A DNA stretch of 64,000 nucleotides from positions 1-64,000 of the forward strand of contig JAKQPS010000157.1 of NCBI GenBank assembly GCA_029564595.1. Reading direction: 5' to 3'. Every line of letters begins with the position of its first letter. Position 1 is the first letter of the stretch. The position numbers were made by a program, and so were the translations under genes. This DNA comes from a bacterium. GTDB lineage: Bacteria > UBP15 > UBA6099. The notes beneath the pieces are model-generated. The model made no database searches and had not been told where the DNA came from. It saw only the letters and a list, made by a program, of their open reading frames with translations. Below, one piece after another: positions 6,171-54,965 of this stretch.

Positions 6171-9100
6171 ATGTATCTGAAATCGGTGTCAATGTTCGGA
6201 TTCAAGACGTTCGCCCGCCGGACGGTCTTTGAGTTCCGCGAGGGCGTCACCGCGGTGGTCGGCCCGAACGGAAGCGGAAAAAGCAATCTGGTGGACGCGA
6301 TAACGTGGGCGCTCGGCGAACAGAGCATGCGCTCGATCCGGGGCCGCAAACTCGAAGAGGTCGTCTACCACGGCAGCGCCAGCCGCAAGCCCCTCGGCTT
6401 CGCCGAGGTCGTCCTAACTTTCGACAACGACGACGGCTATTTCCCGCTCCCTCAGAGCGAAATATCCATAACCAGAAGGTACTTCAAATCCGGCGAGAGC
6501 GAGTTTGCCATCAACAACGAGCCTTGCAGGCTCAAGGATATTCAGGAACTTCTCATCGACACCGGACTGTCCACCACCAACTATTCGATTATCAATCAGG
6601 GCGACGTCGAATACGTCATCGACCTGTCTCCATCGCAGAGGCGCGAGATATTCGACGAGGCCGCCGGAATAAATAAATATAAAATCGAAAAAACGAAAAC
6701 GCTGTCGAAAATCAAAGACACGAATATCAACATCTCCCGGCTGAAAGACATACTGACTGAGATATCCGAATCGCTGGGGCCGTTGAAAGAGCAGGCGGAA
6801 AAGGCGAAACGGTATGACGAGATAGTGGAGGAGATGGAACGGCTGAAGCTGGGCGTCTTCGCGTCCGAGATAAGGCGTCTGAAGAGCCGCTTGGAACAGC
6901 TTTCCGCCGAGGGAGAAGGTCTTAAGGCAAAGAGGGCGGAAGGGTTGAAGAAAGTCGGCGAGCTGAGGCAGTCGCGGGAGAACGTCGGAGCGGGGATAGA
7001 CGGAGCGCGGGCGGAAATCGACTCGGCGCTGCGCGAATTGGCGGACATCGGCTCGAAGCTGGCGCGCGCGGAGGAATCCGCGAGGTTGCTGGCCCGCGCG
7101 GTGGAAGACGCGGACAGAAGGGCCGCCGCCGCCGACGTTGAAAAGACTGACATCTCAAAACAGGAGCAAACTCTAGAAAAAGATATAAAAGACCTTAGCG
7201 CGAAAGCCGAGCAGAAAAAACGCCGGCTCGAAGAAGCCGCCGCAGAGCTTGAAAGCGCGACGAAACAGTCCTCCGACGACCTGAAACTGAATAGGAAAGA
7301 GCTGACGGAGAAACGCGACGGGTTGCTGCCGGAAGCGGAGGAATTGAAGAAGATAGAGGCGCGGCTGGCGGGCGAACTGGCGGTGGCGAAGGACAGGCTG
7401 GCCGGGATGTCGGCGCGGGTGAAGTCCCTGACCGCCGCCCGGGATTCGGCGCGGGACAGGCTGGCTTCGGCGCGCGAACGGGGCAAGTCCGAGAGCGAAA
7501 AAGTTTCGCTATTTGAAAAGCAAATCCGCGAAAAAGAATCGCAGGCGGAAAAGCTTCGCGCTGGCATCGAGGAAACTTCCGCCGGGCGGGATAAAGCGCG
7601 GGCGGCGCTTGATGCGGTCGTCGCGGAGCGCAACGCTTTGTCTGCGCGGGTCGAAGCTATCGAACGCGTAGCGGGCCTGATGGCCGTGAGCGAAAAAGGA
7701 AAACAAACCGCCCGGCTCGCTGACGAGATTGAGATCAAAACCGGGTTCGAGCCTGCCGCGCGCCGCGCTCTGAATGAGCTTTTTAACGCTTCAATTTCGA
7801 CTTCCGCAGACATAGGGAAAGCGCTCGAAGAGGCCGCCGACAGCGGGGCCGCGAGGCTGATTCTCGACTGGTTTGCCGGAGCCGGAGCGGCGGCGGCGGA
7901 GGCTCTCACAAAGAAAAAATGGGCGAAACGGCTCCTGTCGGACGCGGTGTCGGTCAAACCGGGCGCGCCGAAGGAGTTGCTGAATGTATTCTCAATGTTC
8001 GCGCTCGCGGACACCGACGCGGAGATGAAAGAGGCGATTTCGGAACTGCCTCCGGGGGCCGGGGTTGTGAGGGCGGACGGAGCGGCGTGTTTCATCAACG
8101 GGACGTTGTTCACGGGCGAGGCTCTGCCTACCAGCGAGGCTGCAAGAGAGCGCGTGGCCGAGCTTAAGTCTGAACTCGAAAAGAAGAACGCGGAAGTCAA
8201 GGCGGGCCGCGCCGCGCGCGAAGAAGCTGAAAAGAAATACGCGGCCATGAGGACGTCGTCCGAAGAGGCTGGAAAAGAATTTAACAAATTGAATATCGAA
8301 CTGGCTGCGGCGCGCGAGCGCGCTGCGGCGGCTGTGGAGCGCGTCGAGATTCTGACGAAAGACCTAGAATCGGCGGAAAAAGCGCTGGCCGATTTCGCGT
8401 CGTCCGGGGGCGGCTCCGAGTCGGATGTCGCAAAACTGGAATCCGAATTCCGGAATGTTTCTGAAAAGAGAAAAGATATTGAGTCGGATTTAAAGTCGGC
8501 GCAGTGCGGGCTGGACGAGATTGCGGACGCTTTCAGGAAACGGGAGATGCGCGAGGTGGACTTGCGCGTCGAGATGGGAGAACTGAGGCGGGAGATAGAG
8601 GCGGCGGGCGACGCGGAGAAGTACAGGCAGGCGGAGTTGGAGCGGGCGCGCAGGAGAAGCGGGGACATTGAAGCGGAGAAGTCAAAACTGTCTGCGGACA
8701 GGCAGCGCACATCCGAAGAGATGAAGGCGGGCGAGGCGCTGGCAAAAGAGCTTGGGGCGTCGCGCGCGGCGGCGGAATCCGCGCTCGCGCAGAAACGTGC
8801 CGCGCTCAAAGGCATGGAAGACGAAAGCCTGAGGCTGCGCGGAGAGATACACGCCGTCGAAACCCGGCTTGAAGAGTTGAAAGAGGCGATGCTCGACAGC
8901 GAGATGAAGTGCGCGCGCGCGGAAACGCAACTCGAAGAGATAAGAAGGCAGTTCTCTGAGGAGTTCGACGATGTCTCCGAGGAGCGGGCGCTCGAAGAGA
9001 CTGCCGACGGCGGCCCAGCGGGAAAAGGACGCTACCTCGCTCTGAAAAAAGAGCTTGAGACGCTTCAGCCGGTGAACATGCTGGCTATCGGCGAATATGA

Positions 9101-9659
9101 GGAGAAGTCCAACAGATTCGACCTGCTGAGCGAACAGATAGGCGACCTCGAAGACGCGCGCGCGACTCTGCTCGACATCGTGAACGAGTACGACGACCGC
9201 AGCAGGTCGCAGTTCATGGAGACGTTCGAGCGGGTGCGTGAAAAATTTCAGGAGACGTTCGTCGAGATGTTCGGCGGCGGCGAGGCGGAGCTGATGCTTG
9301 TCGGCGACGGCGATCCGCTCGAATCGGGCGTGGATGTTTCCGTGCAGGTGCCCGGCAAGAGGATGAGGGCGATAACCCTTCTGTCCGGCGGCGAAAAAGC
9401 CCTTTGCGCGCTGGTTCTGATTTTCTCCATACTCAAAGTGAAACCCAGCCCGTTCTACGTGCTCGACGAGGTTGACGCCGGGCTTGACGAAAGCAATATT
9501 GTGCGGTTCCGCGAAATGCTGAAAAAACATTCGACCAACAGCCAGTTTCTGGTCGTCACCCACAACAAGGGAACGCTGGTGGGAGCCGACCAATTGTTCG
9601 GCATAACAATGGACAAACAGGAAGGATACTCGAAGCTCCTTACGGTATCCATGGAATAA
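6171..9659 (+). CDS. smc: Chromosome segregation protein SMC
   Basis: 1162 aa. N-terminal FKSFA...VGPNGSGKSNLVDAI Walker A, long coiled-coil regions, and C-terminal LSGGEKALCALVLIFS...YVLDEVDAGLD signature and Walker B motifs. Confidence 0.9.
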   Translation: MYLKSVSMFGFKTFARRTVFEFREGVTAVVGPNGSGKSNLVDAITWALGEQSMRSIRGRKLEEVVYHGSASRKPLGFAEVVLTFDNDDGYFPLPQSEISITRRYFKSGESEFAINNEPCRLKDIQELLIDTGLSTTNYSIINQGDVEYVIDLSPSQRREIFDEAAGINKYKIEKTKTLSKIKDTNINISRLKDILTEISESLGPLKEQAEKAKRYDEIVEEMERLKLGVFASEIRRLKSRLEQLSAEGEGLKAKRAEGLKKVGELRQSRENVGAGIDGARAEIDSALRELADIGSKLARAEESARLLARAVEDADRRAAAADVEKTDISKQEQTLEKDIKDLSAKAEQKKRRLEEAAAELESATKQSSDDLKLNRKELTEKRDGLLPEAEELKKIEARLAGELAVAKDRLAGMSARVKSLTAARDSARDRLASARERGKSESEKVSLFEKQIREKESQAEKLRAGIEETSAGRDKARAALDAVVAERNALSARVEAIERVAGLMAVSEKGKQTARLADEIEIKTGFEPAARRALNELFNASISTSADIGKALEEAADSGAARLILDWFAGAGAAAAEALTKKKWAKRLLSDAVSVKPGAPKELLNVFSMFALADTDAEMKEAISELPPGAGVVRADGAACFINGTLFTGEALPTSEAARERVAELKSELEKKNAEVKAGRAAREEAEKKYAAMRTSSEEAGKEFNKLNIELAAARERAAAAVERVEILTKDLESAEKALADFASSGGGSESDVAKLESEFRNVSEKRKDIESDLKSAQCGLDEIADAFRKREMREVDLRVEMGELRREIEAAGDAEKYRQAELERARRRSGDIEAEKSKLSADRQRTSEEMKAGEALAKELGASRAAAESALAQKRAALKGMEDESLRLRGEIHAVETRLEELKEAMLDSEMKCARAETQLEEIRRQFSEEFDDVSEERALEETADGGPAGKGRYLALKKELETLQPVNMLAIGEYEEKSNRFDLLSEQIGDLEDARATLLDIVNEYDDRSRSQFMETFERVREKFQETFVEMFGGGEAELMLVGDGDPLESGVDVSVQVPGKRMRAITLLSGGEKALCALVLIFSILKVKPSPFYVLDEVDAGLDESNIVRFREMLKKHSTNSQFLVVTHNKGTLVGADQLFGITMDKQEGYSKLLTVSME

Positions 9660-10585: not shown

Positions 10586-10654
10586 AACTGAAAAACCGAA
10601 AAAATCCGAAAATACCGCGAAAAAGTTTTCGCCTTTGGCGATTGGGGAAAAACC

Positions 10655-10697
10655 CTTTGAACCCGAATCCTTCATTAGGATTCGGGATTATTATCAA
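10655..10697. repeat. Copy C (short form) of the repeat hairpin: CTTTGAACCCGAATCC-TTCATTA-GGATTCGGG followed by ATTATTAT
   Basis: Same 9-bp stem as copies A and B, located just downstream of ftsY at the edge of an AT-rich intergenic region. It may act as a terminator. Confidence 0.5.
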
Positions 10698-11007
10698 CCC
10701 AAAGAGCGACAGACGATTGACAACAAGACCGCTCGATATGATATAGTATCTTCAAGCGAGAACAGCACGAATAACGGAGGCGTAAATAGGCGGCTGACTC
10801 TTCCTGTATTATCAATAGTGTTATTTGGTTATTCTAGTTGTTCAGTTTTGATACGATTCATATCGCGGTATCAGATGGAAACAGTGAATAAAAGAATCGC
10901 TTTATCACTACAGACGCCACATCAAGGAAAATGACGCTATCATTTATTGACTTTTTAGATATTTACGAATAACGTTAAGCAATATTCTTGTTTATGAAGG
11001 TGAAAAA

Positions 11008-11577
11008 ATGGAAGCATGGTGGGGTGCGTTAAGCTCTTTTGAAAAGGTGTTTTGGGCTGTTGCTGTCGTATTCTCGGTGTTCTTCTTGCTCCAACTCATA
11101 TTCACTTTCGCAGGGGGCGACGACATCGACTCCGGGGACGTAGATCCGAGTAGCGACACGCATAGCGATTTATTTCTTGGTTTTTTCACCATCAGAAACA
11201 TGGTGGCGTTTTTTCTCGGTTTCTCTTGGTTTGGTTTGGCCTGCTTGGAGAAAGGCTTGTCGAAGTCGCTCACGGTAATCATCGCCGGTGTTTGCGGCGT
11301 TGGAACCGTAGCGCTGGTGATGCTGCTTATGAAAGGGCTTTCTTCCATGAAAAGCAGCGGAACTTTGTCGCTGAAAAACGCCATCGGAAAAGAAGGCTCT
11401 GTAACAATAGCAGTGCCAGAAAATATGAATGGAAGAGGTAAGATAAATATTGTCCTTCAGGGAAGGTTGGTAGAGCTTGATGCGGCAACAAAGGGAGCTA
11501 GGCTAAATAAGGGAGAACAGGTAAAAGTAACAGAGACGATCGGGGATCAAACCTTGGTGATTGAAAAAATCAAATAA
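11008..11577 (+). CDS. NfeD/YqiJ-like membrane protein (N-terminal TM helices + C-terminal OB-fold)
   Basis: 189 aa. Hydrophobic N-terminal half and a C-terminal beta-rich segment (GKINIVLQGRLVELDAATKG...VKVTE) typical of short NfeD proteins. Immediately upstream of an SPFH/flotillin gene (yqiJ-yqiK-like operon). Confidence 0.6.
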   Translation: MEAWWGALSSFEKVFWAVAVVFSVFFLLQLIFTFAGGDDIDSGDVDPSSDTHSDLFLGFFTIRNMVAFFLGFSWFGLACLEKGLSKSLTVIIAGVCGVGTVALVMLLMKGLSSMKSSGTLSLKNAIGKEGSVTIAVPENMNGRGKINIVLQGRLVELDAATKGARLNKGEQVKVTETIGDQTLVIEKIK

Positions 11578-11600
11578 AGATATTGGCGGGGGAATATTAA

Positions 11601-13178
11601 ATGTACATGCTTATCGGTCTTGTTGTAGTGGCAGTTGTGCTTTTCGCGACTTTGCTCGCCGCGATGACAAGGTACCGGCGGTGTCCGTCGGACCAGATCA
11701 TGGTCGTTTATGGGAAAGTGGCGAAGGGTCAAACATCGAAGTGCATACATGGTGGCGCGTCGTTCGTCTGGCCGCTTTTTCAGGCTTGCGAGTATCTTGA
11801 CCTCACCCCGATGACAATCGACATCGGCCTGAAAAACGCGCTGTCGAATCAGAATATAAGGGTGGATGTCCCATCTCGATTCACCATAGGGATTTCCACC
11901 AATCCATCGGTTATGACTGTAGCAGCCGAACGCCTTCTCAGCATGAGCAGGGAGCAAATTGAGGAGAACGCCAAAGACATTATTTTCGGGCAACTCCGCG
12001 CGACTATAGCAACAATGAGCATTGAAGAGATCAATGCGAAACGTGAAAAGTTCGAAGAAGAAGTGATGAAAAATGTCGAGACGGAGCTAGAGAAGCTCGG
12101 CCTCAAGTTAATAAATGTGAATATCACCGATATTTCCGATGAATCTGGATACATTGAGGCGTTAGGGAAAAAAGCGGCTGCCGAGGCCATAAACAAAGCC
12201 AAGGTGGAAGTGGCCCAGCAGGAAAGAGACGGAAAAACAGGCGAAGCGAACGCGCAACAGCAGATGCGCGTAAATATCGCCAATGCCGAAAAAGACGGAT
12301 TGACCGGCGAGGCGAACGCGCAACAGCAGATGCGCGTCAATATTGCCAATGCCGAAAGAGACGGAAAAACCGGCGAAGCGAACGCGCAACAGCAGATGCG
12401 AGTTAACATTGCCGATGCTGAAAGAGACGGCAAAACCGGCGAGGCGAACGCGCAACAGCAGATGCGAGTTAACGTTGCAAAAGCCAACGCCGAAGCCATT
12501 AAAGGAGAGAACACCGCTAAAGTAGTCGAGGCCAACTCGCACGCTGACAGACGAGAAGCGGAAGCCGAAGCGGAGAGAAAAGCCGTCGCTGCGGAAAAAA
12601 CAAAAGCCGCCGAGGCCGCCACCCTAGCCTACATAGCCGAGAAAAAGGCGGAGGAAGCAAGGGCGGATAGAGAGAAGTCCACTCGAAAAGCCGATGTGAT
12701 TGTGCCGGCTGAGATAGAGAAAGAAAAATTAATCATAGAAGCGGAAGCGGCAAAGGAACAACAGACGCTCAAAGGACAGGGAGAAGGAGCGGAAATAAGA
12801 GAGCGGCTAAGCGGAGAAGCGGCTGGCATTCAGGAAATACTCAAAAAGAAAGCCGAGGGTTTCGCGGAGATGGTAAAAGCCGCGAACGGCGACGCGGAAA
12901 AAGCCGCCATGTTGCTCATAGTGGAGCAGTTGCCGGAAATCGTGAGAGCGCAGGCTGAGGCTATCAGCAAAATTAAATTCGACAAGATCGTAGTGTGGGA
13001 CAGCGGCAGCGGCAATGGCGGCGGCTCGACCGCGTCCAACTGGTTGGGCAGTTTCACGAAAATGTTGCCCGCGATGCACGATGTCTGCGAGATGGCCGGA
13101 GTCAGTCTTCCCGAATTTCTTGGAAAAATTAAAGAGCAGGAAAATTCGGAAAACAATCCGGACGCCCCTAAAGCATAA
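11601..13178 (+). CDS. Flotillin-like SPFH/band-7 protein (YqiK/FloA-type) with internal 22-aa tandem repeats
   Basis: 525 aa. N-terminal TM helix followed by an SPFH-like region (VVYGKV..., INVNITDISDESGYIEALGKKAAAEA), then an A/E/Q-rich coiled coil and a repeat block. Confidence 0.7.
   Translation: MYMLIGLVVVAVVLFATLLAAMTRYRRCPSDQIMVVYGKVAKGQTSKCIHGGASFVWPLFQACEYLDLTPMTIDIGLKNALSNQNIRVDVPSRFTIGISTNPSVMTVAAERLLSMSREQIEENAKDIIFGQLRATIATMSIEEINAKREKFEEEVMKNVETELEKLGLKLINVNITDISDESGYIEALGKKAAAEAINKAKVEVAQQERDGKTGEANAQQQMRVNIANAEKDGLTGEANAQQQMRVNIANAERDGKTGEANAQQQMRVNIADAERDGKTGEANAQQQMRVNVAKANAEAIKGENTAKVVEANSHADRREAEAEAERKAVAAEKTKAAEAATLAYIAEKKAEEARADREKSTRKADVIVPAEIEKEKLIIEAEAAKEQQTLKGQGEGAEIRERLSGEAAGIQEILKKKAEGFAEMVKAANGDAEKAAMLLIVEQLPEIVRAQAEAISKIKFDKIVVWDSGSGNGGGSTASNWLGSFTKMLPAMHDVCEMAGVSLPEFLGKIKEQENSENNPDAPKA
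12222..12485 (+). repeat. About 4 tandem copies of a 66-bp (22-aa, RDGKTGEANAQQQMRVNIANAE) intragenic repeat, nearly identical at nucleotide level
   Basis: Directly visible: GGCGAAGCGAACGCGCAACAGCAGATGCGCGT... repeated with few substitutions. Confidence 0.85.
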
Positions 13179-13334
13179 CCAAGTCTCGCTCTGAAAAATG
13201 GGTGAATGACAGATTATGCCTATTTATGATTTGTTTTTACCCATCTCACACCCGCAACGGGGTTGTGGGTGGCGCCCAGCGCAATGGGTAGAATCATCTA
13301 ATAATATGTATAATTGTGAAGGGGCATATTAGCA

Positions 13335-13730
13335 ATGTTATTCTTATTGTTAATATTTTCAGCGGGTGGTATCGAAGTCGCATACAATGTGGTAAAGAAA
13401 AGACATCGCGCGTTTAAAAATTTAGCATTTATAAATGTTCTTGTGGCAGCGTTCGTCATGATGCTCACAAGAGATGTGTCTGGTGAACATCTATCATTTA
13501 ATCTTTGCATAAATCCTATTGCTTTGATTGTTTTTGTTGCAAATCTCATTATCTTCAATAAATACTATTTATCGTTGGCGATCAAGACAAGAAAAGAAAA
13601 CATTGCGTTTGAGCAAAATCATCTTGATGGACAAGATGTAAATGTTGCCATAAAGGTTGTTGCGGCTATAAGCTATATTTTATTATATTTTGCCATTGTA
13701 TACATGATATTAACAGGAAACAATGGGTAG
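13335..13730 (+). CDS. Hypothetical small membrane protein (about 4 TM) in an AT-rich islet
   Basis: 131-aa hydrophobic ORF. The surrounding 13.2-13.86 kb is markedly AT-richer than its flanks. Confidence 0.4.
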   Translation: MLFLLLIFSAGGIEVAYNVVKKRHRAFKNLAFINVLVAAFVMMLTRDVSGEHLSFNLCINPIALIVFVANLIIFNKYYLSLAIKTRKENIAFEQNHLDGQDVNVAIKVVAAISYILLYFAIVYMILTGNNG

Positions 13731-13858
13731 TGACTGCGAGAAAAACGGACATTCGTCGCGAAAAGCTGGCACGGCGAGATGGTTAAAATCAAACAGCGCT
13801 TCGTATAAGGATATCGTTTTAAGAATTTGATAATTGAACAGTGTTGAGTGAATCCGGC

Positions 13859-15703
13859 TTAGTAATTTGATGTGAAGTCGATCATGAAGTCGTTGGTGTC
13901 TGCGAACCAGCGGGTGTTGATGCGCGTGCCGTAGAGGTCGTAGTCGACGTTGAAGTTTTTGGTGGAGAAATGGTTATTTTTGAGGCTGTAGATAAAGTCC
14001 GTGCGGAGTCTGCATTTTTTGTTGACGGTGTAATCAAGGCCGGAGGACAGGCTGCTGATGGTGGCTTCGCGGATGTCGTAAGTGGCTGACATGGCGGAAC
14101 TCCATTTAAGCCCTTTGGACTTGGAGACGTATAGCATGAGTTGTCGTTTGACGGTGGAGGAGCCTGTGTATCTGCTGTCAGTGAAATTATATCTGGCCTG
14201 AATCAACATACCCTGCCGGGGTCTGTGGCCTATGCGGGCGGAGGCGGACAGGCGGGCGCTGGGCCTGCCTTCGGTGTCGCCGCCAAGCCCGGTGGCTGTG
14301 TTCCAATCGATGCTGGTCTTTTTTGACAGCGCGATTGAAGGGCTGACGGCGGTGAGGGTGGTGTAAGCCGCCGTAACGGCGTCGGTATAGTCGTAGTTGT
14401 CCATTTTAATATGGGAGCTGACAGAGTAGCCGATGCCCCGCGTGTTGCCGTTGACGAACTTTCTGTTGCCGTCGAAGCTTACGAGGGCGTTCATAGTGGA
14501 CTGGCCGTAGTCGCCGTCTCCGGTTCTGCGGCCTGAGAGGTAGCCGTTAATTCTGGTTTTCTTGATGCCGCCCGCTGCTCCGAGCCGGAAACCTTTCGCC
14601 CCGGAAAGGTCGTAGTCCATCTGAAGGGTCTGCGACCTCATGCCGGCGGCGTAGCGCGACATGGACATTGTGTAGCCCCTGTCGCCGCCGAAGAGGTTGC
14701 GCATGTTGAACTGGCCGCTTGTCTGGGTGTTCATGCGGAAGGATTGGCGCAGGTCCGCCGAATAAGATTTCGAGTTGTCTCCGTGGTAGTTCATATCGAC
14801 GAAGCCTCTGAAGTCGCGGGCTTCTTTATAGCGCACGTTTGCGCCGACTTTCCAGTCCGCGTTCGAGCCGTAGCTGACGTTGCGGATGCGCCATTTGCCG
14901 GTGGTGTATTTTTTGCTGGTGTTGGTCCAGAAAGGGAGGGACATTACTTTGTTGCCTTTTACCCACATGGTGGCGCGCCACGCTTCATACTGGTCGCCGG
15001 GATAGACGCGCATGCGCGCGGCGGTCACGGCGTTCGCGGTGAGGTAAGGCTCTTCGTAGATGTAGACCGCGTCGCTCATTAGAGGTTCTTGAGCTGTTTC
15101 GTACAGTTCTTCGCCTACGAGATAAAAAGTTCTGACTCCGCTTTGGGTTTGAGTGAGGACGCCCGCCGCGCGGTCCAAGTCGAACCTGAGTTGGTCGCCG
15201 GAGAAAGAAGCGCCGTCCATGCCTGTGACCTGAGCTTCGACGCGCTGGTCGAGCAGGTCGCCGGTCTCTTCGATGTCCGTCAATATCGGGTTGGTCGATG
15301 GAGTCCCAGCGTTGCCAGTTGTTGTGTCTGCGGACTTCTTCATAGTGGAAGCGATGACGTTTCCTTCGGCGTAAAAGACGTGCGATTTAACGTCCACTCG
15401 TATCGAGTCGGCTTGAAAGCGAAGGTTGCCGTGAAGAAGCTCGACCTGTCCGTCGCAGTAAATCACTTTGCGGTCGATGTCGAACATAATGTAGTTTGCG
15501 GTGACGGTGTAGTGGAGTTTGAGGGCGCGCGCGGGCACGGCGGCGGACACAACCGCAAGCGCGGCCAGCGCCGATGCCGCCGCGAGCAATGTTTTTCTTT
15601 TCAGCAAATCAAGCACTATAAGACAACCTGCCGCATTAAACCCGAAAACAATCCGGGTACGCCAATATAACGCGCGGATTCCTCCGCAACCGTATTGTAT
15701 CAT
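13859..15703 (-). CDS. Outer-membrane beta-barrel protein, LptD/OstA-like (LPS-assembly)
   Basis: About 600 aa. N-terminal signal-like LLAAASALAALAVVSAAVPARA, an OstA-like N-terminal segment, and many amphipathic beta-strand motifs ending ...IDFTSNY. The true start is probably a non-ATG codon near 15640. Confidence 0.45.
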   Translation of the reverse strand: MIQYGCGGIRALYWRTRIVFGFNAAGCLIVLDLLKRKTLLAAASALAALAVVSAAVPARALKLHYTVTANYIMFDIDRKVIYCDGQVELLHGNLRFQADSIRVDVKSHVFYAEGNVIASTMKKSADTTTGNAGTPSTNPILTDIEETGDLLDQRVEAQVTGMDGASFSGDQLRFDLDRAAGVLTQTQSGVRTFYLVGEELYETAQEPLMSDAVYIYEEPYLTANAVTAARMRVYPGDQYEAWRATMWVKGNKVMSLPFWTNTSKKYTTGKWRIRNVSYGSNADWKVGANVRYKEARDFRGFVDMNYHGDNSKSYSADLRQSFRMNTQTSGQFNMRNLFGGDRGYTMSMSRYAAGMRSQTLQMDYDLSGAKGFRLGAAGGIKKTRINGYLSGRRTGDGDYGQSTMNALVSFDGNRKFVNGNTRGIGYSVSSHIKMDNYDYTDAVTAAYTTLTAVSPSIALSKKTSIDWNTATGLGGDTEGRPSARLSASARIGHRPRQGMLIQARYNFTDSRYTGSSTVKRQLMLYVSKSKGLKWSSAMSATYDIREATISSLSSGLDYTVNKKCRLRTDFIYSLKNNHFSTKNFNVDYDLYGTRINTRWFADTNDFMIDFTSNY

Positions 15704-15916: not shown

Positions 15917-17050
15917 TTAATATAACAGAGATTCCAGTTTTGAGACGATGCGGGGGGCGGCATGGCCGTCCCAGAGTTCGGGTATGCGCCCCTGTTTCCA
16001 GTCGCCGCGCAGTGCGGCGGCAGCGGCGGCGGAGATTTTTCCGGCGTCTGAGCCGACAAGGATGTTTGTGCCGATGTCAACAGTGACGGGGCGCTCGGTG
16101 TTTTCGCGGATTGTGGCGCACGGGACGCCCAGCCAAGTGGTCTCCTCCTGAATGCCGCCGGAATCGGTGAGGACGATTTTTGCGTTCATGGTGAGGGAGA
16201 GGAATTCCAGATATCCGAGAGGTTCCATGATGAAGATTTTTCCGGCGGGCGTGGAAGCGCCGTCCCAAGCGGCGAAATGGTCGTCCAGCCCGAACCGGCG
16301 TATGTTGTTGACGGTTCTGGGGTGAGCCGGGAAAAAGACGGGGGCTTCGGCGGCGGCGGCTTCGAGAGCGGAGATGATGCGGGAGAATGTGGCGGGGTCA
16401 TCCACGTTGGAGGGTCTGTGAAGGGTGAGGGCGGCGTAATCGCCGGAGAAATCGCCGAGAGGGCGGGCCGATTCGCCGTTGCGCACGCGGCGCGCGTTTT
16501 CCGCCAGAGTGTCAATCATGACGTTGCCGACGAAGAAAATGTTGTCTTCCGCGACGCCTTCTCGCAGGAGGTTGTCGCGTCCGCTAGGCTCTGTGATGAA
16601 GAGGAAAGAGGAGATCGAGTCTGTGAGGACGCGGTTGATTTCTTCTGGCATGGAGCGGTCGAAGCTGCGGAGGCCGGCTTCCACGTGTGCGACCGGGATC
16701 ATGAGTTTTGCGGACACGAGGGAGCAGGCGAGGGTGGAGTTGACGTCGCCGACCACTAGAACGAGGTCGGGTTTTAATTCGAGGACGGCTTTTTCGAAGG
16801 CGAGCATGACGGCGGCGGTCTGGGCCGCGTGGCTTCCGGAGCCGACTTCGAGGAAAACGTCGGGCCGGGGGATGTTCAACTCGTCGAAGAAACTCTGAGA
16901 CATGTTGTGGTCGTAGTGCTGTCCGGTGTGGACGAGGATGGGGCGCAGGGAGGGGCTGGCGGCCATAGCGCGCATAATCGGGGCCACTTTTACAAAGTTC
17001 GGTCTCGCCCCCGCGACGATGAAGACTTTCTTTTTTTTCGACTCAGTCAT
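15917..17050 (-). CDS. wecB: UDP-N-acetylglucosamine 2-epimerase (non-hydrolysing)
   Basis: KKVFIVAGARPNFVKVAPIMRA...HTGQHYDHNMSQSFFDELNIP is the canonical WecB/MnaA N-terminus. The ORF track extends to a TTG at 17080; the ATG starts at 17062 or 17050 are more likely. Confidence 0.8.
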   Translation of the reverse strand: MTESKKKKVFIVAGARPNFVKVAPIMRAMAASPSLRPILVHTGQHYDHNMSQSFFDELNIPRPDVFLEVGSGSHAAQTAAVMLAFEKAVLELKPDLVLVVGDVNSTLACSLVSAKLMIPVAHVEAGLRSFDRSMPEEINRVLTDSISSFLFITEPSGRDNLLREGVAEDNIFFVGNVMIDTLAENARRVRNGESARPLGDFSGDYAALTLHRPSNVDDPATFSRIISALEAAAAEAPVFFPAHPRTVNNIRRFGLDDHFAAWDGASTPAGKIFIMEPLGYLEFLSLTMNAKIVLTDSGGIQEETTWLGVPCATIRENTERPVTVDIGTNILVGSDAGKISAAAAAALRGDWKQGRIPELWDGHAAPRIVSKLESLLY

Positions 17051-17076
17051 GATTTCATCCATGCCGGCCTCCAATT

Positions 17077-17715
17077 TCAACGAGGAAGGCTCCGCTTCTG
17101 AGCGTTTTTGGCGGCTGCCAGTATTTCATCGGTAAACTTCTTGAAATTAGGACATTTGTCACGCACGGTATCAGGCGAGAGTTTTTTAAAAAGATTGACG
17201 CCGTCAATAGTCTTTTTATAGCTGTAATTTTTTTTGTTTTTTCTAAAAAGTTCCTTGAGCAGTTTTGCCGGAGGGGTGTCGAAGTCAACTGTTTCCGGGT
17301 TGTCGCAGCAACCGGGCAGCTTGATCTCGTTGGGGAATATTTTAGGGTCGCTGAGCAACCATGCTTCCAGTTCATGAACCGCGAAATGCTGGTGGAATTT
17401 AGGCCTGCATTCTTTTGGCAAAGACTCTATGATTTTTTTTCTTGCGAAATTGGTTTTTTCATCGACAGTGTTTCCGCCTTTGCACTTTTCCGGCAATCCA
17501 TAGAGGTCGAGCAATCCGAAGATGGCGATTACTTCGCTATTATCAAGATGTAATTGAGATTTTTTGCCGGCGCGTTTTAAATAATCGCCGCAACCATCAA
17601 AAACAATAGGTTTGACGCTTATCTTTTTGTCCAGTTGAGAATCCAACCACTTTTTAAGAAAAACTTGAGTTATTATGTTTTCAGTTTTGCCTTCGACGAA
17701 AAGAAGTATTTTCAT
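17077..17715 (-). CDS. DUF4276/RloB-like small protein (putative TOPRIM-like nuclease partner of the upstream ATPase)
   Basis: 212 aa. N-terminal KILLFVEGKTE motif (resembling the ILVCEGEKTE of RloB/OLD-TOPRIM) and HELEAWLL. AT-rich codon usage. The start ATG lies 3 nt after the ATPase stop codon. Confidence 0.5.
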   Translation of the reverse strand: MKILLFVEGKTENIITQVFLKKWLDSQLDKKISVKPIVFDGCGDYLKRAGKKSQLHLDNSEVIAIFGLLDLYGLPEKCKGGNTVDEKTNFARKKIIESLPKECRPKFHQHFAVHELEAWLLSDPKIFPNEIKLPGCCDNPETVDFDTPPAKLLKELFRKNKKNYSYKKTIDGVNLFKKLSPDTVRDKCPNFKKFTDEILAAAKNAQKRSLPR

Positions 17716-17718
17716 GGA

Positions 17719-18957
17719 TCATCCGCCGATTTCTCTATCGAGCCATAGTCTGCCGAGGGTGTATTCCTCCAGCCACTTGGAAAGGGAATCGCGGTCAAGT
17801 CTTTTCGCAGTGGTCGCGCCGTCTTCTTTTTCCACGACCACGACTGATTCCGGCATGTCGGAGAAGGCGCTTAAAAGTTCGGGAGAGTGAGTGGAAACAA
17901 TAAGTTGAGTTCTGTTTGACGCGTCTTTGATAAGCTCCGCGATGATGCCGAGCATAGAAGGGTGCATTCCAAGTTCAGGTTCGTCGATACAGATTATCGG
18001 CGGGGGTTCAGGGGAGAGAAGAATCGCGGAAAGCATCAGGAAAAGGATGGTTCCGTCAGACAGATCGGCGGGTGAAAGCTCGCGGTTGAGCGTTTTCGAG
18101 CGCCATTTCATATAGACTCTGCCGTTTTCGAGAGGCGGGAATGTCAATTCTTCAAAGTCGTCGCCGAAAGCCGCTTCGAGAGTGTTGTTAAGTTGTTCTT
18201 CGAACTCTTTATTGCCGGTGTAAAGAGTGTGAAGGACGGCGATGAGGTTGTCGCCGTTCGATTCCAACACCTTTTCCGATCTCGTGACAGTCGAATGTCT
18301 AGCTTCTGCTTCCGGGCCATGATTTAGGTTTCGGTAAAATGAACAGTCATTAAAAAAGTTGATGAACCTATATATTTGTAATTCAGTATAATTTTTCCAT
18401 CCATTTTTGATTGAATCCATATTAAAAAACATGGATTCGCTATCTTTAAAAATATCGAACACAGCCGCTGGAATATCGCTATTAATTTCTTTCGTGAAAT
18501 ATTCTTTTCCATCTCTGTTAATAATCGTGCCTGTGTAATTGGATAAATCATCATCATTGGCAATATTCTCGACATGGAGTTTTTCTAATTCAATGCCATA
18601 TTCGCTTGAGGCTCTCAATTGTTCAAGTCTTAAACTATAAACATATCGTCTTTTTACTAAATTGGATGCGTTTTCTTCCGGGTTTTCGTTGAAGCCAAAA
18701 CGATGAGAGCGTATTGTTGCCTCAAAACCGATTTCCTTTGCGGTTCCATTCCAAAGAATGGGGATCATGCCGCCGTGTTTTTTCATAATGGCGTCGCGAA
18801 GTTTGCCGGAGACGGCGTCGGAAAGAAGTTCAAGGGCGCTGATTATGTTGCTTTTGCCGCTGGAGTTGGGGCCGATGAGGATGTTTACGGGCATAAGGTC
18901 TAGGTTGAGATTTTTTAAAGATCTGAAACCTTCGACTTTGAAATTTTTGATAATCAT
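17719..18957 (-). CDS. AAA_21-type (ABC/SMC-like) ATPase
   Basis: Walker A GPNSSGKSN, ABC-signature-like LSDGT, Walker B IICIDEPELGMHP and H-loop VSTHSP are all present. An AGGAGA RBS sits 8 nt upstream of the ATG at 18957. AT-rich composition. Confidence 0.7.
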   Translation of the reverse strand: MIIKNFKVEGFRSLKNLNLDLMPVNILIGPNSSGKSNIISALELLSDAVSGKLRDAIMKKHGGMIPILWNGTAKEIGFEATIRSHRFGFNENPEENASNLVKRRYVYSLRLEQLRASSEYGIELEKLHVENIANDDDLSNYTGTIINRDGKEYFTKEINSDIPAAVFDIFKDSESMFFNMDSIKNGWKNYTELQIYRFINFFNDCSFYRNLNHGPEAEARHSTVTRSEKVLESNGDNLIAVLHTLYTGNKEFEEQLNNTLEAAFGDDFEELTFPPLENGRVYMKWRSKTLNRELSPADLSDGTILFLMLSAILLSPEPPPIICIDEPELGMHPSMLGIIAELIKDASNRTQLIVSTHSPELLSAFSDMPESVVVVEKEDGATTAKRLDRDSLSKWLEEYTLGRLWLDREIGG

Positions 18958-19089
18958 GAACAAATCTCCTAGAGCCGGCTAAAAGCCTGACAACTTATAT
19001 GTGAATTTTACATTTTTCCGACGGATAGCGCCATCGGAGGGGAAAAAGAGGGAGCGGAGCGCGGGCGGCGAGGGTGTGCCCGGATTCTT

Positions 19090-19138
19090 GACCTCTGAAA
19101 AATATTGTAAATGTCTGCGATGGCTTTTTTCAGAGGTC
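19090..19138. promoter_or_regulatory. Perfect 13-bp inverted repeat GACCTCTGAAAAA-N23-TTTTTCAGAGGTC in the divergent intergenic region between the ATPase gene and the protease gene
   Basis: Directly visible palindrome arms. Its position between divergent starts suggests an operator, or a terminator/insulator hairpin. Confidence 0.35.
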
Positions 19139-19285
19139 GCGGATTCTGGTTTAATTTGATTTGATAATGAGATATAATATCAAACTTAAATGCGCGCCGA
19201 AGGCGGAGCGCGCGGGGTTGATGTTGAGATTGACGTCAAGTTGCGGCGCGGGTTTTTCATAGGCGCGCGGTCGCGGCGGAACATA

Positions 19286-51791: not shown

Positions 51792-52002
51792 GGCTCTCCG
51801 CCTCCCTTTATTTGTCGAGCTTATTATATAACGACAGCCTTTAATAAACGAGAAGGAAGTTGTTGAACCCGGATTCTCCGATAGAGCCGGTGAACCGGGC
51901 CGATTGTTTATAGCGGCGAACTTCTTTGTTGCTGTCGTTGCCGTAGCATTTCGAGCCTAATTTATCACATATCGCGGCGGGAATCGGAGTTCCTGCTACA
52001 CA

Positions 52003-52076
52003 AAAAATGCGCCTTGTGTCTAGCATTTTATCAGTTATGAACAATCGCTCCTGAGTCCTAAAGATGGATTCGGACT
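52003..52076. repeat. Copy D of the repeat family (AAAAATGCGCCTTG...TGAACAATCGCTCC + hairpin CCTGAGTCC-TAAAGAT-GGATTCGGA), at the left edge of the 52-56 kb AT-rich island
   Basis: Aligned to copies A and B. The substitutions in the stem are mostly compensatory or G·U-compatible. Confidence 0.55.
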
Positions 52077-52289
52077 GAAACAAAAAGCAAAAAAAGCGCC
52101 ATTTTTTCGTTTTTGGGCGTTTTTTAAAAAATCCCAAAAATAAGTTTTGGCTTTATTGCTCGAATATTTTTTCAAAAAGGCCCTTAGGTAGTTTAAAACT
52201 TTTTTACTCTTTTCTATAATAGTAATATTTCGGCATATAAAAAACAGTTTTTTTTGTCAAGATGTGAATAAAACAATGGAGGCATTATC

Positions 52290-52958
52290 ATGGCAAAACT
52301 GGGAAAAAATGACTTGGAAAAAATTATGAAATCATTATCAAAGAGAAGGCCCGTATTCCATAGAGAAGCAGATTTTCAACACGAACTTGCATTTGAATTG
52401 CGTGAACATTTTAAAGATGCAAGTATCCGTTTGGAATATCCCCAAAAGCCAATTAAAGAGAAGCCAATTGAAGAGAAAGGTGAAAAGAGGAAATATATAG
52501 ACATAGTTGTTTTGTTTAAGGATGAAAAAATTGGCATAGAAGTAAAGTATTTATTAAAAGGAATGAACAAAAACAAATTAGCTCAACCGATCTATGATGA
52601 TCATGACTGCACTAAAAAACCTGAACCTTTCTACGTTTCAGGACAAGGAGGGCAGAATAAGAGAGGCTATGCATTTGTTGAAGACATCCACAAATTAGAA
52701 AATGCAGTATGCTCTTATGGTTATTTGATAATACTTACAAATGACGCAATATATAGTAAAAAAGCTAGAAATAAAAATGCTAAATGCGCAAAATACAGAT
52801 TCCATGAAGAAGCTGTGCTTGAAGGTACATTTAACTATGGGAGTCAAGCAATTACATTAGTAAGAGAATATAAAGACTTCAAATGGGAAGAATACAATGC
52901 AAAAGACAGCAAATTTGAAGATTTCAAATACCTTATTGTCCCAATAGGCAAAAAATAG
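52290..52958 (+). CDS. Hypothetical protein with PD-(D/E)xK nuclease-like motif
   Basis: 222 aa, AT-rich. The E...D...ExK arrangement is READFQHELAFEL ... KYIDIVVLF ... IGIEVKYL. A -10-like TATAAT and a GGAGG RBS lie upstream. Confidence 0.45.
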   Translation: MAKLGKNDLEKIMKSLSKRRPVFHREADFQHELAFELREHFKDASIRLEYPQKPIKEKPIEEKGEKRKYIDIVVLFKDEKIGIEVKYLLKGMNKNKLAQPIYDDHDCTKKPEPFYVSGQGGQNKRGYAFVEDIHKLENAVCSYGYLIILTNDAIYSKKARNKNAKCAKYRFHEEAVLEGTFNYGSQAITLVREYKDFKWEEYNAKDSKFEDFKYLIVPIGKK

Positions 52959-53054
52959 CATTAAAAGCATCGCGATAATTCGATTCTAAAACCCATCGGC
53001 AATCTTGTCACACCCTGTGACTATTATTTCTATTGGAGCAAAGGAGCCTTTAAT

Positions 53055-53972
53055 ATGCACAATACGCTTGAAAAGCTAGTGGAGGAACTCAGGTTTTATG
53101 ATGCGAGAAAAAAAGATGTGTCGGCGATTTCGAATGCAATAATGTTTGAAAGGGGAGAATTCATTTTCAAAGGGCGGCAAATCAGCGTTGCCGACACCGC
53201 GCTGAGACAACTGCTTGGCTATTGCGGAATCCCTCCGAAGTTTTTTAAAGAGACGCTTTCCGACTCAGAAAAGACTCTTTTGTTTAACAGGCTCTACAGA
53301 AAAAAAGACGGCAACGCGATGCGGATGTATAGGTTCGATTGCGACGAACTTTACGGCGTGGTCAGCGACAGATACAGAAAGATTGACAACATCGAGTTGA
53401 TTCCTGTTCTGGAAGGAATGGCGGGAAAGGGTATAGCTATGGAGGCTGTCAACATAACGCTCAATCCTGACCATACAAAGATTAGGCTTGTTCCATTGGA
53501 TTATTATCATGGAGAAACTGCGCCGATGATAGAATTCACTAATAGCGAAAACGGTCTTGGCTCAATGAAAGTATGGGCCGGTGTTTATCGTGCAGTGTGC
53601 TCTAACGGCTTAATGGTCGAGATAGAAAGCCACACACGTACGAAATGGCGGCATTTATGCAATACAATTTTTGATTTGCCGGATTTTAACGCTGTTCTTT
53701 CTGTGTCCATTGATTACATGAAACGACTTGATAATTCAAAAGTCGTCTATCTCGGCGCGAAGGATAAAGAAAAGCATTTGCGCAGTGTTTTCTCGGAATT
53801 CGGAAAAGACGCGGCAGACAAAGTGGTTGAAGTAGCGCGAAGCGAATACAGGAACGGCGAGACACTACATGATGTGGTTAACTCGATTACACGCGCGGCG
53901 CAGCATTATCAGTCAAGACAACGCACTGAAATGGAGCGTTTTGCTACGACAATACTTGACTCGAGAAACTGA
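53055..53972 (+). CDS. DUF932-like (phage/plasmid/ICE-associated) protein
   Basis: 305 aa. FTNSENGLGSMKVWAGVYRAVCSNGLMV matches the NSxDGSxA...R.VCxNG core characteristic of DUF932 (TIGR03299-type) proteins. Confidence 0.5.
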   Translation: MHNTLEKLVEELRFYDARKKDVSAISNAIMFERGEFIFKGRQISVADTALRQLLGYCGIPPKFFKETLSDSEKTLLFNRLYRKKDGNAMRMYRFDCDELYGVVSDRYRKIDNIELIPVLEGMAGKGIAMEAVNITLNPDHTKIRLVPLDYYHGETAPMIEFTNSENGLGSMKVWAGVYRAVCSNGLMVEIESHTRTKWRHLCNTIFDLPDFNAVLSVSIDYMKRLDNSKVVYLGAKDKEKHLRSVFSEFGKDAADKVVEVARSEYRNGETLHDVVNSITRAAQHYQSRQRTEMERFATTILDSRN

Positions 53973-53978
53973 TAATAT

Positions 53979-54965
53979 TTGATCATAGTAAAATACATTG
54001 AGGGAGATAATATGATGATAGAGAATTGGCGCATGAGAAAGAAGCAAACAATAGCCGTCAATGGTTTAATTGAAGAAATACTAGCAGCGGTATTAAACAG
54101 TGATGATGTGGGAAGTATTAAAAAGGCAAATGAGACTGAATCAGATGATCGCAATATCAATATAATTGAAACAGGGTTTCCTGAATTAGATAAAGCATCC
54201 GTCGTCCTAAAACCATCCAACCTTGTTCTTATTGCTGCGAAGAACGGAATGAAAGCGACGAGTCTTGCGCTGTCAATAGCAAAACACATTGCGATAGAGC
54301 AAAATAGACGAATAGGGATTATCTGCCTAAAAGAAACCCCTGAAATGATTGCTGTCCGACTATTATGCAATATCGCAGACGTTAATCCGACAAGCGTAAT
54401 GCATGGGTGGCTAAGCACAGAAGAATATTATGATATAGAAAAAGCAATGAACGCCTTAAATAACGCATCGATAAACATATCGACAGTATCTATTAATAGC
54501 AACATATTAATAAATGCAACAAAAAACTTAAAAAAACAACATGATGTTGAGTGCATCGTTTTAGAAGCCTCGCGAATTTCAGCAAGACGTTGTATGCCGA
54601 TAATGAAAGCAATGAAAGAAGTAGCAGAGATAGACGATATACCGATCATGGTGGCCATGCGTCTGCCTGCAAATAAGAAGAGTGGCAAAAGGAAAAGAGC
54701 TTACATAGAAGACACAAGTAAATGGCAAACCATACTCGATATAGCTGATCTCTTTATGTCCGTTTACTGCGAAGATCGTATCCACTTGTTGAAAGCAGAT
54801 GCAAATTACAATATTTTGGCTATACAAGAAGCCGAGATGACGGAACTGAGAGTAAAAGCCAAAATTGCTATAAATAAGAACGGAAGCGATTGCGAAGTAA
54901 CGACTAATTTAGCTTATAATCACAATTTCGAACGTTTTGAAAGATATTACGCGACTAATGACTAG
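53979..54965 (+). CDS. DnaB C-terminal (RecA-fold) domain protein with degenerate Walker motifs
   Basis: TGFPELDKASVVLKPSNLVLIAAKNGMKATSLALSIA aligns with the DnaB [37 protein letters not shown], but the P-loop is altered (GMKAT instead of MGKT) and Walker B is IVLEAS rather than IDYLQ. There is no DnaB N-terminal domain. Confidence 0.5.
   Translation: MIIVKYIEGDNMMIENWRMRKKQTIAVNGLIEEILAAVLNSDDVGSIKKANETESDDRNINIIETGFPELDKASVVLKPSNLVLIAAKNGMKATSLALSIAKHIAIEQNRRIGIICLKETPEMIAVRLLCNIADVNPTSVMHGWLSTEEYYDIEKAMNALNNASINISTVSINSNILINATKNLKKQHDVECIVLEASRISARRCMPIMKAMKEVAEIDDIPIMVAMRLPANKKSGKRKRAYIEDTSKWQTILDIADLFMSVYCEDRIHLLKADANYNILAIQEAEMTELRVKAKIAINKNGSDCEVTTNLAYNHNFERFERYYATND

Follow-up and report, generated by a model that had tools for sequence, protein, structure and literature searches.

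The window, i.e. the whole 64-kb stretch of DNA that was analyzed, harbors two adjacent and intact genes on its minus strand. The first encodes an ATPase of the ABC/SMC-head type (HEC-01A-like, 17719..18957). The mechanically called open reading frame spans 17719..18963 and opens at a TTG (18963), which yields 414 aa according to the ORF list and the sequence. However, a ribosome-binding site (AGGAG, 18970-18966) is located 8 nt upstream of an ATG (18957) but no more than 2 nt upstream of the TTG. This spacing favors the ATG, and the 412-aa reading of the preliminary description is therefore likely. The second gene (17077..17715) encodes a DUF4276 protein of 212 aa (HEC-01B-like). At the junction of the two genes (17716..17721, minus strand) the sequence reads ggc gga TGA tcc ATG, so that the ATPase stop codon (17721-17719) is followed by a 3-nt spacer and the DUF4276 start codon at 17715. 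The pair is flanked by a peptidase S55 gene and by wecB, encoding a UDP-GlcNAc 2-epimerase (15917..17062, minus strand; Epimerase_2, 8e-103). The DUF4276 stop codon (17079-17077) lies 14 nt from the wecB ATG at 17062, on the same strand. Both the TGA-tcc-ATG junction and the tight packing against the wecB start had been reported before and were found in the sequence.

The ATPase matches the Pfam families AAA_21 (6.7e-34) and AAA_15 (3e-24) far beyond chance. It possesses the Walker A motif, the LSGG-like signature, the Walker B motif with catalytic glutamate and the H-loop of SMC/Rad50-like ABC ATPases, which appear as IGPNSSGKSN (G29-N31-G34-K35-S36-N37), LSDGT (S300-D301-G302), IICIDEPELGMHP (I324-D325-E326-P327-E328) and VSTHSP (T356-H357-S358), respectively. 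All of these motifs are invariant among 45 aligned ATPase homologues. The modelled fold resembles the heads of SMC and Rad50, PtuA and AriA, as well as those of RecN and RecF. Residues ~100-260 form a variable, very AT-rich insert region.

The small protein matches DUF4276 over its full length (Pfam, 2.3e-27), again far beyond chance, and carries the motifs KILLFVEGKTE and HELEAW. The motifs that the preliminary description had quoted for both proteins are all present and fall on invariant columns of the alignments, which comprise 51 homologues for the DUF4276 protein. Its structure model (pLDDT 93) consists of a beta1-alpha-beta2-alpha-beta3-alpha-beta4 TOPRIM core and a C-terminal helical region. 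The four-stranded parallel sheet with the order 2-1-3-4, the flanking helices and a conserved Glu after beta1 correspond to the OLD-like branch of the TOPRIM fold. The nuclease region of Burkholderia pseudomallei OLD (BpOLD), AriB and GajA were the best structural matches, and RecR was absent from the 60 best. Together with the conserved acidic residues, these matches support the TOPRIM-like nature that had been claimed for this protein. The identity, the fold and the conserved residues of the gene products are thus directly established.

Among the 51 DUF4276 homologues, E8, E12, D70, E115, E117 and W119 are invariant and Y166, K168 and K187 nearly so. The active site of BpOLD is formed by E400, E404, D455, T506/E508 and K562 (PMC6755086). 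E8 and E12 show the same i/i+4 spacing as E400 and E404, D70 is positioned at the end of beta3 like D455, E115-x-E117 follows beta4 where BpOLD harbors T506-x-E508, and K168 and K187 are located in the helical part like K562. The arrangement resembles the OLD/BpOLD pattern E...E / D / x-E / K, and a fit of the conserved acidic residues to the OLD two-metal pattern is supported. However, the second Asp of the DxD motif of OLD is a Tyr in the window protein. Instead of the canonical TOPRIM DxD after beta3, it contains D-L-Y, in which D70 is invariant and Y72 nearly invariant (family consensus GLLDLYG). Judging from T506/E508 of BpOLD, the invariant E115-x-E117 after beta4 may replace the missing carboxylates; by position in the predicted structure, not by superposition, both glutamates would be ligands of metal B. 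PF20469 is touched by 32 of the 51 homologues (best 6e-6), and the window's own protein scores 0.05 with this family, which is sub-threshold. The alignment profile found no match among all PDB sequences at E <= 10. The link to OLD therefore rests on the fold and the sub-threshold PF20469 matches.

The best of 143 PADLOC matches was that of HEC-01A (PDLC04177) to the ATPase (8.2e-76; residues 2-414, numbered from the TTG, and profile positions 2-390 of 393). Three nucleotides away on the same strand, the DUF4276 gene product was matched best by HEC-01B (PDLC04188; 1.6e-20, residues 2-201 of 212). [quoted passage not shown] (10.1101/2024.01.29.577857), who found it embedded in Hma (helicase-methylase-ATPase) systems and reported a metal site in common with BpOLD. 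The window pair is identical in layout, an ABC ATPase gene (AAA_15/21) being directly followed by a small TOPRIM-like gene, and the residues conserved in its DUF4276 family agree with the reported metal site. In contrast to the Hma-embedded loci, it is accompanied by neither Hma nor another defence system and is probably joined to the wecB transcription unit amid housekeeping genes. Embedding in Hma is the discovery context of HEC-01 and not a requirement of the PADLOC model.

A pairing of ATPase and DUF4276 has also been shown as 'MADS3-4' (PMC11464382), and DUF4276 has been placed in the Toprim superfamily with Mad4 named as a homologue (PMC12065111). The Mad3-Mad4 proteins of the MADS system of P. 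aeruginosa, an AAA_15/21-type ABC ATPase and a DUF4276 TOPRIM protein, are architecturally equivalent to the window pair. MADS comprises six further genes (methylase, specificity, regulator and Mad6-8), none of which occurs at the window locus. The mandatory Mad6, Mad7 and Mad8 and the methylase Mad5 gave no PADLOC matches in the window, and the flanking genes are housekeeping genes. The PADLOC mad3 model matches the ATPase at 2.5e-28, but it matches the housekeeping SMC of the window at 4.8e-59. Since the SMC scores more strongly, the mad3 similarity is unspecific and was rejected as a sign of MADS membership. The NCBIfam equivalog model NF047739 (antiphage_MADS3) aligned with the whole ATPase and reached 92.9 bits versus a cutoff of 420, and no NCBIfam model matched the DUF4276 protein. 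The HEC-01A and HEC-01B matches and the Mad3/Mad4-equivalent architecture do not support the earlier suggestion of an undescribed sub-family: the gene pair is an ordinary new member of HEC-01, a kind of system already catalogued in PADLOC, and opens no new class.

The preliminary description had further proposed kinship with PARIS, AbiL or class-2 OLD, of which the defining parts are missing. The partner protein AriB of PARIS is a DUF4435 protein of ~300 aa, whereas the window partner is a DUF4276 protein of 212 aa without a match to DUF4435 (PF14491) in Pfam or to AriB in PADLOC, and for the ATPase the HEC-01A model gives a far better score than AriA. In AbiL (AbiLi and AbiLii) and RloA/RloB-type pairs, an AAA_21-type ATPase is followed by a small protein of the TOPRIM superfamily as in the window, but the AbiL partner is RloB (PF13707), for which neither the DUF4276 protein of the window nor its 50 homologues gave a match. 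The AbiLi model of PADLOC matches the ATPase (5.3e-30) more weakly than HEC-01A does. [quoted passage not shown] Nevertheless, OLD and GajA carry both modules on a single polypeptide, whereas they occupy two open reading frames separated by a stop codon in the window. A UvrD/PcrA-like helicase corresponding to GajB is absent next to the pair, and the only UvrD-like gene of the window (56148-58175) lies 37 kb off. The pair is not PARIS, AbiL or class-2 OLD because DUF4435 and RloB matches, an ATPase-TOPRIM fusion and an adjacent UvrD-like partner are all lacking. The GajB and RTasHel matches in the window come from the ordinary UvrD/PcrA-like helicase, and those of RtcR_PspF from a sigma-54-type activator; neither gene was counted as defence.

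Both genes differ in composition from their surroundings. Their GC contents of 0.442 (ATPase; z = -4.9) and 0.415 (DUF4276; z = -5.8) compare with 0.579 +/- 0.028 for 19 further genes in the window, and GC3 amounts to 0.49 and 0.46 versus 0.72 elsewhere in the window; GC and GC3 are 5-6 sd lower. In a close relative the site is empty, and wecB and the peptidase S55 gene are immediate neighbours in divergent orientation. Blastn breakpoints and the junction alignment show that homology to the empty-site loci L013 and L014 extends through a wecB ATG at 17050-17048 and restarts at GTGAATTTTAC (19001-19011); the sequence upstream of 19001 corresponds to the wecB 5' region of the relative. The comparison delimits an insert of 1950 bp (17051..19000; GC 0.434), in whose place the relative has 18 bp (TTCAGCGCCTGCCTTTTA). 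Besides the window, the L007-L010 lineage and L017 carry the cassette, which is absent with clean junctions from L013-L015, the flanks of which are 86-88% identical; altogether, two or three other lineages carry it at the same site. No convincing target-site duplications, terminal inverted repeats or recombinase were detected at its ends. A 17-nt imperfect inverted match between 17073-17089 and 18929-18945 lies inside coding sequence, is probably due to chance and was discarded. No outgroup settled the polarity of the indel, as more distant relatives have lost synteny upstream of the peptidase gene: they keep the purE-purB-purC block downstream, and upstream they harbor rtcB, gyrB/parE-like or lipid A genes. 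The call of an insertion rather than a deletion therefore rests on composition. The AT-richness relative to the flanks reported earlier was thus confirmed, and the proposed low-GC insert was substantiated by foreign composition and by presence/absence polymorphism between close relatives; the GC content of 65% given for wecB has to be corrected to 60%. Comparison with L007 yielded dN/dS values of 0.135 for the ATPase and 0.265 for the DUF4276 gene, with dS similar to that of flanking genes. Both genes are under purifying selection, a sign that the pair is still functional; like the insertion, this selection is directly established.

The cassette brought its own leader (18958..19000, minus strand), which contains the AGGAG of the ATPase gene, and it also provides wecB with a GGAGG (17072-17068) and, in frame, with a new ATG at 17062. 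The ancestral wecB ATG at 17050 is 26 nt from the DUF4276 stop codon. Scans for promoters and terminators did not return more sites than shuffled sequence did and therefore carry little weight; they were used only for the gap between the DUF4276 gene and wecB, in which no terminator-like site was found on the minus strand (17077 to 17050). Co-transcription of wecB with the cassette is therefore probable, and the ATPase, DUF4276 and wecB genes probably constitute one operon driven from the former wecB promoter region. The insertion point lies precisely at the border between the leader and the ATG of wecB, a position relevant to the idea, considered below, that such modules land in leaders.

Exact-pattern seeds for the sub-family of the window pair retrieved 317 loci among about 185,000 species genomes (one genome per species). 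They occur in Acidobacteriota, Chloroflexota, Planctomycetota, Myxococcota, Desulfobacterota, Verrucomicrobiota, Bacillota and other phyla. The pairing is likewise established directly: the ATPase gene is located directly upstream of the DUF4276 gene on the same strand in all 78 testable loci from many phyla, and start and stop codons overlap by 4 nt (ATGA, GTGA or TTGA) in 68 of 77 homologous pairs. About a quarter of the homologous pairs have a same-strand neighbour at a distance of <= 60 bp on a given side. Housekeeping genes predominate among the immediate neighbours of 43 homologous pairs (radical SAM 6, RecG 4, and others), and clear defence genes are few; this survey used a crude longest-ORF caller and family counts without naming the matching member, and provides a rough picture rather than an enrichment statistic. 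The enrichment of defence genes around homologous pairs to which the preliminary description had looked is largely lacking in this survey, and the PADLOC models revealed no other defence system in the 64-kb window. This leaves the defence-island argument weak. The same scarcity of defence neighbours was noted by Payne et al. for Hma-embedded candidates generally (10.1101/2024.01.29.577857). It weakens the inference of a defence function for the pair.

Direct tests of HEC-01 gave differing results. In the E. coli screen of Payne et al., the HEC-01 representative gave no protection from any phage used (10.1101/2024.01.29.577857), whereas one from a cold seep made E. coli resistant to one or more of the phages T4, T5 and T7 (PMC12881386). 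A link to defence is further provided by a homologue with 46% identity (locus L034) that lies inside a BREX system, flanked by pglX and pglZ, by the discovery of HEC-01 within Hma systems and by the requirement of both mad3 and mad4 for MADS defence. An anti-phage function of the window pair can reasonably be inferred. The joint explanation that we consider probable, though by no means certain, is that of a stand-alone HEC-01-type module, acquired horizontally as the 1950-bp cassette and acting in defence as a restrained nuclease. An ancestor of the lineage would have gained the module as a cassette without recombinase gene between leader and start codon of wecB. By analogy to PARIS, P2 Old, Gabija and Mad3/Mad4, translational coupling would set the ratio of ATPase to DUF4276 protein, and the two would assemble into a complex. 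Within this complex the ATPase may keep the nuclease inactive until its region ~100-260 senses a phage-derived trigger, for instance a protein or DNA of aberrant structure. Binding or hydrolysis of ATP at the Walker A, Walker B and signature sites would then release or open the TOPRIM partner, whose putative two-metal site (E8, E12, D70 and E115/E117, with a lysine of the helical region) would cut nucleic acid, tRNA or DNA being candidate substrates. Such cleavage would stop phage propagation, probably at the expense of the infected cell. From the analogous systems we infer the complex, its trigger, its substrate and any phage-resistance phenotype.

Another way to account for a coupled nuclease and ATPase is a selfish, toxin-antitoxin-like module, in which the TOPRIM nuclease is the toxin, the ATPase its restraint, and persistence and fusion to wecB reflect stabilization rather than an advantage against phages. 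The patchy spread across phyla, the foreign composition of the cassette, the mostly non-defence neighbours and the tight translational coupling, which is typical for toxin-antitoxin pairs, agree with such addiction, and AriA has been labelled 'antitoxin' by PDB depositors. But the complete catalytic ABC motifs under strong constraint (dN/dS 0.135) exceed the need of a simple antitoxin, and the BREX embedding together with protection by one HEC-01 favors defence. We consider addiction unlikely; as it overlaps mechanistically with abortive infection, defence would stay compatible with it.

The pair could also be a restriction-like effector that normally acts with a methyltransferase, as Mad3/Mad4 in MADS and Hma, and attacks unmodified DNA; the orphan pair would then need a methylase elsewhere or be inactive. 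In MADS, mad3 and mad4 are each required for defence, and the methylase gene mad5 can be lost only together with mad2 or mad3 (10.1101/2023.03.30.534895), which suggests self-targeting by the Mad3 module. The discovery of HEC-01 inside Hma loci, the BREX methylase PglX adjoining the L034 homologue and the alignment of the NCBIfam MAD3 model over the entire ATPase point in the same direction. However, the MAD3 score lies far below its cutoff and the mad3 similarity is unspecific, no methylase or helicase adjoins the pair, and no such partner is among the PADLOC matches of the window. Most homologous pairs likewise lack methylase or helicase neighbours, and purifying selection on the orphan pair argues for a stand-alone function. 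Dependence on a methylase therefore appears quite improbable. A housekeeping or accessory repair module acting on damaged or stalled DNA like RecF (SMC-like ABC ATPase) and RecR (Toprim) is very improbable: the ATPase model resembles SMC, Rad50, RecN and RecF heads, 4 of 43 loci have recG directly downstream in the same orientation and most neighbours are housekeeping genes, but absence from a close relative, foreign composition and 317 exact-pattern loci in about 185,000 genomes do not form a core-repair pattern, and the 60 best structural matches of the small protein include OLD, AriB and GajA and not RecR.

Beyond the stand-alone defence module, it may be speculated, as a rather unlikely but wider proposal, that stand-alone ATPase-DUF4276 pairs form a fifth branch of OLD-like immunity with a mechanism of its own. 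This branch would be characterized by a rebuilt TOPRIM site (D-x-Y and the post-beta4 E-x-E replacing DxD), possibly with a separate substrate, and by minimal recombinase-free cassettes that insert into housekeeping operons or the 5' leaders of housekeeping genes, where they use the host promoter.

Although the family is widespread, HEC-01 has been assayed against phages only twice, with a negative outcome in one case and a positive one in the other. For mutagenesis, the conserved residues provide a list comprising K35 and E326 of the ATPase and E8, E12, D70, E115 and E117 of the nuclease. The window adds a 1950-bp cassette of defined extent that some close relatives carry and others lack. This polymorphism, the purifying selection and the obligate cross-phylum pairing with start/stop overlap indicate that the pair alone is the unit of transfer and selection.

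The two genes of the cassette are located on the minus strand between wecB and a peptidase S55 gene, at 17719..18963 (ATPase) and 17077..17715 (a DUF4276 protein of 212 amino acids), as outlined in the preliminary description. The ATPase is likely a protein of 412 amino acids starting from the ATG at 18957, the length proposed initially, rather than of 414 amino acids starting from a TTG, because this ATG begins 8 nt after an AGGAG ribosome binding site (18970-18966). The proposed TGA-tcc-ATG junction between the genes is present in the sequence (ggc gga TGA tcc ATG). GC contents are 0.442 for the ATPase gene and 0.415 for the DUF4276 gene, with GC3 values of 0.49 and 0.46. These are 4.4 to 5.8 standard deviations below the means of 19 other genes of the window (GC 0.579 +/- 0.028, GC3 0.72 +/- 0.05). 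Thus both genes are AT-richer than their surroundings, as claimed, but the GC content of wecB is 60% and not 65%.

Based on PADLOC-DB, the pair was called as HEC-01 (Hma-embedded candidate 01), with an end-to-end match of the ATPase to HEC-01A (8.2e-76) and of residues 2-201 of the small protein to HEC-01B (1.6e-20). These models were well ahead of AriA (1.6e-34), AbiLi (5.3e-30), mad3 (2.5e-28), Old and GajA, and the AriB models did not match the small protein. The locus is therefore a further member of a known, catalogued candidate family and not the undescribed subfamily initially suspected. The more specific affiliations suggested at first were also incorrect: PARIS is ruled out by the absence of DUF4435 from the partner, AbiL by the absence of an RloB partner, and class-2 OLD or Gabija because the modules are unfused and no helicase is adjacent. 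The methylation-associated defence system MADS was rejected as well, as the NCBIfam MAD3 score (92.9 bits) falls below the cutoff of 420 and the remaining MADS genes are absent from the locus and the window. The PADLOC mad3 model alone is unspecific, because the housekeeping SMC protein of the window (6171-9659) scores better (4.8e-59) than the HEC-01A-like ATPase. No further defence system was found by PADLOC among the other 51 ORFs of the window. [quoted passage not shown] In E. coli B, a representative from a cold seep conferred protection against one or more of the phages T4, T5 and T7 (PMC12881386). The PARIS paper (PMC11464382) draws ATPase plus DUF4276 as 'MADS3-4' among the AAA15/21 plus TOPRIM systems, and the Menshen paper places DUF4276 (Mad4) in the Toprim superfamily (PMC12065111).

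The ATPase matches AAA_21 (6.7e-34) and AAA_15 (3e-24) of Pfam. Alignment with 45 homologues identified G29, N31, G34, K35, N37, S300-D301-G302, I324-D325-E326-P327 and T356-H357-S358 as invariant. The small protein shows a full-length DUF4276 match (2.3e-27), and E8, E12, D70, E115, E117 and W119 are invariant among 51 homologues. All motifs quoted in the preliminary description are present and fall on invariant columns of these two alignments. A confident AlphaFold2 model of the small protein (pLDDT 93, pTM 0.88) predicts strands at 2-7, 33-38, 62-70 and 107-112 with helices between them and a helical C-terminal part; the TOPRIM fold and the ATPase/TOPRIM architecture had been recognized correctly. 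At the sequence level the link to OLD-like_TOPRIM (PF20469) is weak but recurrent, with a value of 0.05 for the small protein and contacts to 32 of the 51 homologues (best 6e-6). DUF4435 and RloB touched none of these homologues, and a profile search with the family gave no match among PDB sequences. The two-metal site of BpOLD is formed by E400, E404, D455, D457, T506, E508 and K562 (PMC6755086). Mapped by their positions in the model, the invariant residues of the small protein appear to share this layout. E8 and E12 have the i/i+4 spacing of E400 and E404, D70 at the predicted end of beta3 may correspond to D455, E115-x-E117 after beta4 would take the place of T506-x-E508, and K168 and K187 in the helical part are candidate counterparts of K562. 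In contrast, the second Asp of the DxD motif is replaced by a conserved tyrosine (Y72).

Comparison with relatives delimits the insert. The cassette occupies the same site in the L007-L010 lineage (DNA about 91% identical) and in L017, a GTDB species-representative MAG (about 90%), and an identical DUF4276 protein with unchanged neighbours occurs on contigs of several anaerobic-digester-type metagenomes. The relative represented by L013-L015 lacks the cassette (flanks 86-88% identical, peptidase 88%); there wecB is divergent from and directly beside the peptidase S55 gene, with about 235 bp between them. Homology to this empty site extends through the wecB ATG (17050-17048 of the window) and restarts at GTGAATTTTAC (19001-19011), which defines a cleanly bounded insert of 1950 bp (17051-19000) replacing 18 bp of the relative, exactly between the start codon of wecB and its former leader. 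The insert supplies the AGGAG of the ATPase gene and, for wecB, a GGAGG and a new in-frame ATG at 17062, 14 nt behind the DUF4276 stop codon (17079-17077). No terminator-like site was found between the DUF4276 gene and wecB, and the simplest reading would be a single operon, ATPase-DUF4276-wecB, whose transcription is driven from a site upstream of 19001. Neither terminal repeats nor a recombinase gene were found at the insert. More distant relatives do not retain the gene order upstream of the peptidase gene, so that no outgroup separates insertion from deletion; the foreign composition speaks for insertion. Compared with L007, the ATPase gene has a dN/dS of 0.135 and the DUF4276 gene one of 0.265, and their dS values (0.10 and 0.31) lie within or close to those of the flanking genes (0.16-0.41). 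This agrees with a single old acquisition and subsequent vertical inheritance under purifying selection.

Between cassette and peptidase gene lies a 74-bp palindromic element (19076-19149; 24-nt arms at 19079-19102 and 19126-19149, 79% complementary) that is unique in the window and absent from L007 and L014. Its minus strand has sigma-70-like hexamers, which are upstream of the ATPase gene. A 614-amino-acid conserved protein without Pfam match (13859-15703, minus strand) is encoded next to wecB, as in all close relatives (569-586 amino acids there). Between ftsY and this gene is a variable slot (window 10600-13800; L007 17214-18374; L013 3202-4464). In the window it harbors orf189, a Band_7/flotillin gene with internal 66-bp (22-aa) tandem repeats, and orf131 of very low GC (0.33); the L007 lineage has extra IS3-family transposase genes, and the empty-site L013 instead a defence-like 420-aa SIR2_2-domain gene. 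A second, larger low-GC island (51800-55000, GC 0.37-0.40 versus 0.58), flanked by acyl-CoA dehydrogenase and TPR protein genes, encodes a protein without Pfam hit (52290-52958), a DUF932 protein (53055-53972) and a DnaB_C-like helicase (53979-54965), and resembles what is left of an integrated mobile element.

In a pattern-seeded search covering a single genome per species, 317 loci with relatives were detected across many phyla (39-48% identity among the 79 non-self loci kept). In 78 of the 80 best loci the ATPase gene immediately precedes the DUF4276 gene on the same strand, the remaining two being cut by contig ends. A 4-nt start/stop overlap (ATGA, GTGA or TTGA) joins 68 of 77 pairs; the 3-nt spacer of the window pair is a minor variant of this junction. 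About a quarter of pairs have a same-strand neighbour within 60 bp on a given side. At 43 loci the genes immediately next to the pair have mostly housekeeping functions (radical SAM 6, RecG 4, sulfatases, peptidases), with a few clear defence genes among them. At L021, L037, L074 and L077 (about 10640-12800 in each; labelled Blastocatellia or Acidobacteria MAGs and one labelled Heliomicrobium) the pair overlaps or lies 17-25 bp upstream of a same-strand ORF of 715-732 amino acids. RecG matches (wedge and domain-3 families) came from exactly four neighbours, for which these four ORFs are the candidates by size. In a Lentisphaeria MAG (JAWLHB010000014.1, L034 49-13228) a 46%-identical pair is located inside a BREX system, in the single-strand order brxC, a 337-aa gene, pglX, the pair and pglZ.

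An OLD-like two-component sensor-effector is the reading with the best support; it stands on the fold, motifs, pairing and selection shown here. The TOPRIM nuclease would be held and regulated by the ABC ATPase. A cue from a phage, detected by the ATPase, would act with the ATP cycle to free or open the nuclease, which would then cut tRNA or DNA and abort infection. Complex formation, trigger, substrate and phenotype are proposed purely by analogy with PARIS, P2 Old, which is reported to be a tRNase (10.64898/2026.07.10.737580), Gabija and Mad3/Mad4. That the pair is instead a selfish toxin-antitoxin-like addiction module is unlikely. MADS defence requires both mad3 and mad4, and its methylase gene mad5 can be deleted only along with mad2 or mad3 (10.1101/2023.03.30.534895); a modification-dependent restriction effector whose methylase was lost or is used in trans is a shade less likely still. 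A RecF/RecR-like repair module is highly improbable, since it poorly fits the patchy, foreign presence/absence pattern. The locus offers clean insertion evidence and a testable list of residues in HEC-01, an ATPase-DUF4276 module that is widespread and biochemically uncharacterised.
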